From Escherichia coli (GTDB taxonomy: Bacteria > Pseudomonadota > Gammaproteobacteria > Enterobacterales > Enterobacteriaceae): DNA of 64,000 nt. The position numbers were made by a program. The first letter of the stretch is position 1, and each line of letters starts with the position of its first letter. This document shows, piece by piece, positions 38,701-41,700 of the stretch. The stretch lies in assembly GCF_024298765.1 (NCBI RefSeq), contig NZ_CP101210.1. The stretch is one strand, 5' to 3'.

Positions 38701-41700
38701 GCAGCATCACTTTTAAACACAGGACATCTTTGATGATAAGGCAGGTTATCCAGCGAATAAGCAACCCTGAAGCAAGCATCGAGAGCTTGCAGGAACGGCG
38801 TTTTTGGTTGCAGTGTGAGCGTGCTTACACCTGGCAGCCGATCTATCAAACCTGCGGACGGTTAATGGCCGTGGAGCTATTAACGGTGGTCACGCATCCC
38901 TTGAACCCTTCGCAACGCCTGCCGCCGGATCGCTATTTTACTGAAATCACCGTTAGCCATCGGATGGAGGTTGTGAAAGAGCAGATTGATTTGCTGGCGC
39001 AAAAAGCCGACTTCTTTGTAGAGCACGGCCTGTTGGCATCGGTCAATATTGACGGCCCTACGCTCATCGCCCTGCGTCAGCAACCAAAAATCCTGCGCCA
39101 GATTGAGCGTCTTCCCTGGCTGCGTTTCGAACTGGTGGAGCATATCCGTCTGCCGAAAGATTCAACCTTTGCCTCGATGTGTGAATTTGGCCCGCTGTGG
39201 CTGGATGATTTTGGTACCGGGATGGCAAATTTCTCTGCACTAAGTGAAGTGCGTTATGACTACATCAAAATCGCGCGAGAACTGTTTGTGATGCTGCGTC
39301 AGTCACCGGAAGGACGCACACTCTTTTCTCAGCTTTTACATCTAATGAATCGCTATTGTCGCGGGGTGATTGTCGAGGGCGTAGAAACACCAGAAGAGTG
39401 GCGTGATGTTCAGAACTCGCCCGCATTCGCCGCACAAGGCTGGTTTCTTTCACGCCCGGCACCGATAGAAACGCTGAATACGGCGGTTCTGGCGCTATAA
39501 GCTGCCTCATTTTCCGCCTGGCTGGACTATCTTTAGGACTGGCACAGGAAGAATATGAGGAAGCGAACGATGAGCAAGGCAGGCAAAATAACCGCTGCGA
39601 TTTCAGGGGCTTTCTTGTTGTTGATTGTCGTGGCGATCATTTTGATTGCAACTTTTGACTGGAATCGACTCAAACCGACCATCAACCAGAAAGTCTCTGC
39701 GGAGTTGAATCGTCCGTTCGCTATCCGTGGCGATCTGGGCGTGGTGTGGGAGCGGCAAAAACAAGAAACTGGCTGGCGCAGCTGGGTGCCGTGGCCCCAT
39801 GTACACGCGGAAGACATCATTCTTGGCAATCCACCGGATATTCCCGAAGTCACAATGGTGCATTTGCCGCGAGTAGAAGCGACGCTGGCCCCGCTGGCGC
39901 TGCTGACCAAAACGGTCTGGTTGCCGTGGATCAAGCTCGAAAAGCCCGACGCACGCCTGATTCGCCTCTCAGAAAAGAACAACAACTGGACGTTTAATCT
40001 TGCCAACGATGACAACAAAGACACGAATGCAAAGCCGTCGGCATGGTCGTTTCGGCTGGATAATATTCTGTTCGATCAAGGGCGGATCGCCATTGATGAC
40101 AAAGTAAGCAAAGCGGATCTGGAAATTTTTGTCGATCCGTTAGGCAAGCCGCTGCCGTTCAGCGAAGTTACTGGATCGAAAGGTAAAGCGGATAAAGAAA
40201 AGGTGGGCGATTACGTTTTTGGCCTGAAGGCGCAGGGACGTTATAACGGAGAGCCGCTCACTGGTACGGGAAAAATAGGCGGTATGCTGGCGCTGCGTGG
40301 CGAAGGGACGCCATTTCCTGTACAGGCTGATTTTCGCTCTGGTAACACCCGTGTTGCTTTTGATGGCGTTGTGAATGACCCAATGAAGATGGGTGGTGTC
40401 GATTTACGGCTTAAATTTTCTGGCGATTCGCTGGGTGATCTCTATGAACTGACGGGCGTTCTGCTGCCCGATACCCCGCCGTTTGAAACGGATGGTCGGC
40501 TGGTAGCGAAAATCGACACTGAAAAATCGTCGGTCTTTGATTATCGCGGTTTTAATGGGCGAATTGGCGATAGCGATATCCACGGTTCTCTGGTCTACAC
40601 CACCGGCAAGCCACGACCAAAACTGGAAGGTGATGTTGAGTCGCGGCAATTGCGGCTGGCAGATTGAGGGCCGTTAATTGGCGTTGATTCCGGGAAAGGA
40701 GCTGAAAAGTCGAAACGGTCTGAACAGAAGAAGGGTGAAAAAAGCGTTCAGCCTGCGGGCAAAGTGCTGCCTTATGACCGCTTCGAAACCGATAAATGGG
40801 ACGTCATGGATGCCGATGTTCGCTTCAAAGGGCGGCGCATTGAGCATGGCAGTAGCCTGCCGATTAGCGATCTTTCTACTCATATCATCCTCAAAAATGC
40901 TGACCTGCGCCTGCAACCGCTGAAATTTGGCATGGCAGGCGGCAGCATTGCGGCGAATATTCATCTGGAAGGTGATAAAAAACCGATGCAAGGGCGGGCA
41001 GATATTCAGGCTCGTCGACTGAAACTGAAAGAACTGATGCCCGATGTAGAACTGATGCAGAAGACGCTGGGGGAAATGAACGGTGACGCGGAACTACGCG
41101 GTAGCGGTAACTCGGTGGCGGCGCTTTTAGGCAACAGTAACGGCAACCTGAAACTGCTGATGAATGACGGGCTGGTGAGCCGCAACCTGATGGAGATTGT
41201 CGGGCTGAATGTCGGTAACTACATTGTCGGTGCGATATTTGGTGACGATGAGGTGCGGGTGAACTGCGCGGCGGCGAATCTTGATATTGCCAACGGTGTG
41301 GCGCGTCCGCAGATTTTTGCTTTTGATACTGAGAATGCGTTGATCAATGTTACCGGTACGGCAAGTTTTGCTTCGGAGCAACTGGATTTGACTATCGATC
41401 CAGAAAGTAAAGGGATTCGGATTATCACACTGCGTTCGCCGCTGTATGTGCGTGGGACGTTTAAAAATCCGCAGGCTGGGGTGAAAGCCGGGCCGTTGAT
41501 TGCCCGTGGTGCTGTTGCGGCGGCACTGGCAACGCTGGTAACACCGGCGGCGGCGTTACTGGCGCTGATCTCTCCTTCCGAAGGGGAGGCTAATCAGTGT
41601 CGGACGATTTTGTCGCAGATGAAGAAGTGATGATAATTGCCGGATGTCTGACATCCGGCAATTAAACAGATTTAGAGTGTTGGCAAAGTGTGCTTTGTTC

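Follow-up and report, generated by a model that had tools for sequence, protein, structure and literature searches.

A single nonsense substitution interrupts the AsmA-family gene yhjG in a small sub-clone of Escherichia coli

The locus studied here raises the question of how many genes it holds and whether any of them still works. In the stretch of Escherichia coli DNA that we analysed (64,000 bases of contig NZ_CP101210.1 from assembly GCF_024298765.1, hereafter the window), a mechanical ORF list gives two plus-strand ORFs in a common frame, at 39555..40667 (370 aa) and 40764..41630 (288 aa). Two neighbouring ORFs of this kind could be the halves of one gene broken by a mutation, a split gene whose two parts still work together, a gene whose stop codon is recoded, or the product of a sequencing error, and a broken gene could in turn have been lost by drift or by selection. 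On the evidence below, we consider that a real and vertically inherited nonsense substitution (T to G at 40666, Leu366 to TGA) has made yhjG a pseudogene of a small sub-clone and that this is a tolerated loss, a reading to which we assign a probability of about 0.88.

The reading frame and the identity of the gene

Translation of 39555..41633 revealed one internal stop, in the context ...ESRQLRLAD-stop-GPLIGVDSGKGAEK..., and the DNA at 40659..40673 reads gca gat tga ggg ccg. Translation and DNA thus confirmed what an initial sequence-only reading had stated, namely that the two ORFs share a frame and that the TGA at 40665..40667 is the only stop between them. The whole gene occupies 39570..41630 (+), where the RefSeq CDS of E. 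coli strain 104 maps and the Pfam AsmA profile matches, and it is a pseudogene here. Its first part is an N-terminal ORF (39570..40667, +; 365 aa plus TGA), which is still translatable and is delimited by the ORF list, translation, Pfam and hydropathy. It ends in the premature TGA at codon 366 (40665..40667, +), in which the G at 40666 is the derived base. An in-frame stretch that belongs to neither ORF follows in the translation (40668..40763, +; aa 367-398, GPLIGVDSGKGAEKSKRSEQKKGEKSVQPAGK), and the remainder is a residual C-terminal ORF of 288 aa with a GTG start (40764..41630, +), recognised from the ORF list, Pfam and hydropathy.

In the complete genome of strain 104 (NZ_CP029164.1), which gave the best megablast hit, RefSeq annotates yhjG as one 2,061-nt CDS without a pseudogene flag, encoding an AsmA family protein of 686 aa (WP_001318095.1). 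The start of this CDS is the ATG at window position 39570, while the ATG at 39555 is merely the first in-frame start in the mechanical ORF listing. Both the start at 39570 and the length of about 686 aa that the sequence-only reading gave for a single YhjG protein were therefore borne out by the RefSeq CDS.

When the stop was repaired, the translated product scored 653 bits against Pfam AsmA PF05170 (cut-off 29.8; residues 1-582; E=6e-196), and the separate pieces scored 393 bits (N-fragment) and 213 bits (C-fragment). The product also possesses an N-terminal anchor, with Kyte-Doolittle 19-residue windows above 1.6 starting at residues 3-17 and a peak of 2.98. The gene lies in the orthologous position, with pdeH upstream and the convergent yhjE downstream, and by megablast the 2,076-base stretch matched the chromosomal yhjG locus in 5,420-5,422 of the 5,426 complete RefSeq E. 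coli genomes. Profile, N-terminal anchor and synteny agree, and they place the gene at 39570..41630 in the AsmA family as the orthologue of yhjG (b3524 in E. coli). The two ORFs are not a chance pattern; they are the halves of one known gene, parted by one substitution.

At the end of yhjG, three tandem in-frame stops (TGA TGA TAA) precede a perfect 13-bp inverted repeat, AATTGCCGGATGT ctg ACATCCGGCAATT, at 41637..41665. This repeat has no T-run and is consequently absent from the terminator scan list; weak REP-like Rfam matches lie beyond it, at 41697..41778.

The sense codon in relatives and the inheritance of the stop

The window is colinear with the complete genome of strain 104 over all 64,000 bases, and the two differ by three substitutions, at 40666, 46578 and 53205. 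The first is a G here and a T in strain 104, and it is the sole mismatch in the 8,076 bases that were compared base by base. Codon 366, numbered from the ATG at 39570, is TTA (Leu) in strain 104 and TGA in the window, a T>G transversion. The proposal that the ancestral codon was CGA or TGG did not hold, since strain 104 has TTA for Leu366.

We then considered how widely the two alleles occur. A 61-mer centred on the stop and carrying TGA had an exact match in none of the 5,426 complete RefSeq E. coli genomes, and all 91 matches at 98.4% in these genomes had one mismatch. These 91 genomes presumably share TTA at codon 366, which was verified in strain 104 alone. A stop common to many complete genomes was ruled out as well, as the "100.0%" reported by megablast is a rounded 2075/2076. 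In the more distant E. coli strains CP53 and 2012EL-2448 (locally ~2.3-2.8% diverged) the gene is intact and codon 366 is CTG, and the Salmonella YhjG, 93% identical, keeps the motif LRLADLGPLIG. In strain 104, CP53, 2012EL-2448 and Salmonella alike, YhjG is 686 aa long, has Leu at position 366 and contains no internal stop. Two separate genes in the orthologues were looked for, and the close relatives have one intact gene; the sequence-only reading that a nonsense mutation splits a normally single YhjG is thus supported. Since TTA is one step from a stop, a one-step nonsense mutation was possible in this clade, whereas the CTG found elsewhere does not allow it. The choice between the synonymous codons TTA and CTG at yhjG 366 therefore alters the exposure of different clades to nonsense mutation.

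An exact-sequence look-up in NCBI and Logan placed the exact 365-aa truncated YhjG on 15-18 contigs, the longest of 5.11 Mb, and the intact allele with otherwise the same sequence on at least 1000 contigs. Eight loci (L004-L011), each from its own sample accession, were examined at the position homologous to 40665..40667, and TGA was present in 8/8. They comprise two NCBI assemblies (GCA_037165025.1 and GCA_902849615.1) and six read-set assemblies (SRR13143264, SRR27876916, SRR10083234, SRR10083233, ERR14748681 and SRR10153366), and six of the eight match the window at 100% identity wherever they overlap it (1.5-21 kb). Because independent sequencing and assembly reproduce the same base in eight samples, the TGA is a genuine heritable allele of a small sub-clone and not a sequencing error. 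The allele is already present in public assemblies, though the sub-clone that carries it is absent from the complete RefSeq genome collection.

One of the TGA-bearing loci (L008, contig 21326 of SRR10083234) has two third-codon-position differences, at the window equivalents of 40736 and 40805, less than 140 nt past the stop, unlike its sister run SRR10083233 (L010), which matches the window exactly. Given the high contig number, these differences may come from a chimeric contig of a mixed sample.

Consequences for the protein and other explanations of the stop

According to AlphaFold-based work (PMC10345924), each of the six AsmA-like proteins of E. coli has a transmembrane helix at its N-terminus and, after it, a long groove in the periplasm. 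Hydropathy analysis of the 686-aa YhjG gave only two hydrophobic segments, at aa ~7-30 (window 39588..39653) and aa ~645-668 (~41487..41573). A 2026 preprint describes in YhjG a conserved hydrophobic lid-like loop with predicted insertion into the outer membrane, and we suspect, on our own account, that aa ~645-668 correspond to this loop. The stop falls inside the single AsmA domain, with the N-fragment covering positions 1-395 of the 607 in the profile and the C-terminal ORF covering positions 426-606. The gap between them, profile positions 395-426, corresponds to 40668..40763, which also holds most of the most hydrophilic stretch of YhjG (aa 373-398, DSGKGAEKSKRSEQKKGEKSVQPAGK), beginning 7 residues past the stop.

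Translation from the ATG at 39570 would stop after 365 residues. The product would keep the inner-membrane anchor together with the proximal half of the groove domain of AsmA type; the distal 321 residues would be missing, and with them the second of the two hydrophobic segments. Such an anchored half-groove should be unable to bridge the periplasm or to reach the outer membrane, and since a half-length YhjG could not span the periplasm, we infer that the role of YhjG would be lost or nearly so. The 288-aa ORF encodes neither a signal sequence nor an anchor, and its possible ribosome-binding site is a weak GGG, 5 nt upstream of a GTG that lies 97 nt past the stop. With no export signal and only this weak GGG, its product, even if weakly initiated, should not reach the periplasm; it would stay in the cytoplasm and contribute nothing in the periplasm. 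When 39300..41900 was scanned for promoters and terminators, no signal exceeded the level of shuffled sequences, a result that speaks neither for nor against a promoter inside yhjG for the C-terminal ORF. Polar effects on neighbouring genes are not expected, since yhjE comes next and is convergent. The 365-aa fragment may retain some activity, as may the small amount of protein made by read-through.

The loss is probably tolerated and near-neutral because YhjG is dispensable under laboratory conditions, the evidence for dispensability coming from K-12 in laboratory media and not from this lineage or from natural hosts. In K-12, deletion of yhjG alone left growth and outer-membrane permeability normal, and it added no effect to any double mutant, so that a tamB yhdP yhjG strain equalled a tamB yhdP strain (PMC8593681). 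A 2023 review reported no clues to the function of YhjG (PMC10345924).

Other explanations of the broken frame have to be weighed against a pseudogene. If the true base at 40666 were T (TTA) and the G were an artefact of a single assembly, it would be natural that the TGA 61-mer is found in no complete RefSeq E. coli genome and that the substitution stands alone in a sequence otherwise near-identical to many genomes. The chance of this is negligible, since eight samples, each sequenced and assembled on its own, show the identical TGA, and a second stop, the yhjB TAG described below, is also present in all three sub-clone loci that extend to yhjB. The sequencing error that the sequence-only reading had allowed for is rejected on this ground: at 40665, where a sense codon would have pointed to an intact gene, the independent assemblies carry TGA instead. 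It is also very improbable that the gene is functionally split, with both ORFs expressed and performing the role of YhjG together, or with the N-terminal part performing it alone. The break does lie just ahead of the most hydrophilic and probably loop-like stretch (aa 373-398), an in-frame GTG follows it, and each piece by itself still matches the AsmA profile; however, the C-terminal piece lacks a signal peptide or anchor as well as any ribosome-binding site better than the weak GGG, the protein is one polypeptide in all relatives examined, Salmonella included, and the allele is rare (15-18 contigs against at least 1000).

There is likewise only a very slim chance that full-length functional YhjG remains the main product through programmed recoding, whether by selenocysteine or by stimulated read-through. 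No stop codon of E. coli is leakier than UGA, at which tRNA-Trp competes with RF2 (PMC10570021), and a hairpin can be drawn that begins 3 nt after the UGA. However, the 70 nt that follow the UGA folded no more stably than shuffled sequences (z=-1.64; 16 of 200 shuffles as stable), which is not significant, and the hairpin is unchanged in strains with TTA. An Rfam scan of 39000..42200 at E<=1 gave no SECIS-type or other relevant family, its only hits being weak REP-like matches downstream of yhjG and a meaningless RNase P fragment. The homologues have Leu at this position, not Cys or Sec as would be usual for a recoded site, and a single base separates the UGA from a codon for Leu, which every relative examined has kept. 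This points to no history of selection for recoding. The base at +4 is G and not the inefficient C, a U at this position strengthening termination (PMC5289835). Basal read-through of UGA by tRNA-Trp in K-12 reporters amounts to merely ~2% at 37 °C and ~4% at 25 °C (PMC10570021). The conserved Leu, the absence of a SECIS-like element from the scan and the +4 G thus lend no specific support to the stop-codon read-through that had been raised as a possibility. Since no recoding signal was found, we expect only non-programmed basal read-through, which would yield at most a few percent of full-length L366W protein, and the TGA allele may accordingly be a leaky null. In strains other than K-12, which have a more active RF2, read-through would be lower.

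A second stop in yhjB, selection, and comparison with known systems

A second nonsense mutation lies 6 kb from the yhjG stop. In yhjB (46008..46610, +), CAG is replaced by TAG at 46576..46578 relative to strain 104; this change at codon 191 (Q191 to stop) removes the last 10 aa of YhjB, a LuxR/GerE-type regulator. The TAG accompanies the yhjG TGA in 3/3 of the sub-clone loci that reach yhjB (L004, L005 and L007), and 10 complete genomes from other lineages have it too, with a 190-aa YhjB in their RefSeq annotation. In these 10 genomes the nearest mismatches flanking the TAG are at 46499 and 46670. Because the backgrounds of these carriers are ~2.3% diverged, the TAG seems, from the sequence comparison, to be recurrent and to have more than one origin. 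Import by recombination was considered and is unlikely, as the carriers differ at 46499, at 46670 and at ~2.3% of sites, where the window equals strain 104.

The third difference from strain 104 is a G to T change at 53205, which turns a T5 run into T6. The site is 80 nt upstream of the point where gadW starts (53285) and does not fall within GadY (52928..53041, minus strand), and the 61-mer around it had an exact match in 0 of the 3,995 complete genomes that match that 61-mer.

The two stops raise the alternative that the yhjG truncation was selected and did not merely drift, possibly jointly with the yhjB truncation. Of the three substitutions that separate the 64-kb window from strain 104, two are nonsense mutations (yhjG L366 to stop and yhjB Q191 to stop), while nonsense changes are 3.6% of the possible coding substitutions in the window; under uniform random substitution, two or more of three being nonsense has P = 0.0024, a statistic that is post hoc and based on three sites. 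The yhjB TAG on ~2.3% diverged backgrounds points to independent origins, and a non-synonymous yhjG SNP was common to three evolved clones in a plasmid-adaptation experiment (PMC10976473). On the other side, the yhjG allele shows no sign of spread or recurrence, with 0/5,426 complete genomes carrying it. Neutral or mildly deleterious mutations readily hitch-hike in clonal bacteria, and selection has no known phenotype to act on (PMC8593681; PMC10345924). Taken together, adaptive loss of yhjG appears unlikely, although a second nonsense mutation 6 kb away in the same sub-clone hints that something beyond pure drift may be at work. The region around yhjG and yhjB is rich in genes for biofilm and c-di-GMP: hmsP, pdeH and the bcs operon, whose bcsQ carries a stop throughout the lineage. 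The more specific idea that both truncations were selected together in an emerging sub-clone is in our view quite doubtful; if it were true, the natural carriers would be a ready-made knockout for finding the role of YhjG.

We therefore return to the tolerated loss by nonsense mutation as the preferred reading. The yhjG of the window is a lineage-specific pseudogene of an ordinary kind; one nonsense substitution created it, and its mechanism is nothing new. For annotation, this means that yhjG here should be recorded as one pseudogene (Leu366 to stop) and not as two genes, and that the stop should not be "corrected". Isolates of the sub-clone are natural yhjG truncation mutants, which can be compared with nearly identical relatives whose yhjG is intact.

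Elsewhere in the window, 16270..17940 holds four tandem Ldr-type toxin ORFs of 108 nt each, spaced by ~483 nt and ~95-96% identical, each of which is matched on the other strand by an rdlD antitoxin RNA (Rfam 80-90 bits). At 6463..8196, an IS3-family transposase that uses a programmed frameshift (6636..7891, by the annotation of strain 104) comes immediately after a tRNA-Pro gene. An RtT element (7889..8022) adjoins the transposase, and a REP-like naRNA4 match lies at 8116..8196.

The window contains another internal stop, in bcsQ (21935..22687), where codon 27 is TAA (22013..22015). This stop is identical in strain 104, whose bcsQ carries the RefSeq pseudogene flag "internal stop", and, by a polar effect on bcsA, it may leave the lineage cellulose-negative. 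The bcsQ stop of K-12, by comparison, is presumably at codon 6 and not at codon 27. The stops in bcsQ and yhjG resemble each other in that both are clonally inherited single-substitution internal stops in an otherwise intact and conserved gene. They differ in reach, as the bcsQ stop is common to strain 104 whereas the yhjG stop is confined to the small sub-clone outside the complete RefSeq genomes.

The closest counterpart of the interrupted gene is the yhjG of strain 104, which has the same locus, synteny and, bar one base, the same DNA. Its product has the same AsmA domain, N-terminal anchor and C-terminal hydrophobic segment as the repaired product of the window; the unrepaired product ends at residue 365 of 686, where codon 366 is TGA and strain 104 has TTA. 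The AsmA-like bridge proteins YhdP, TamB and YdbH, which act in intermembrane phospholipid transport, belong to the same superfamily as YhjG and share with it, in published AlphaFold models, a predicted N-terminal anchor followed by a long beta-groove (PMC10345924; PMC11014939). These three are jointly essential, whereas YhjG stands outside their redundancy and has no known phenotype (PMC8593681), so its truncation is not expected to be harmful in the way that theirs would be.
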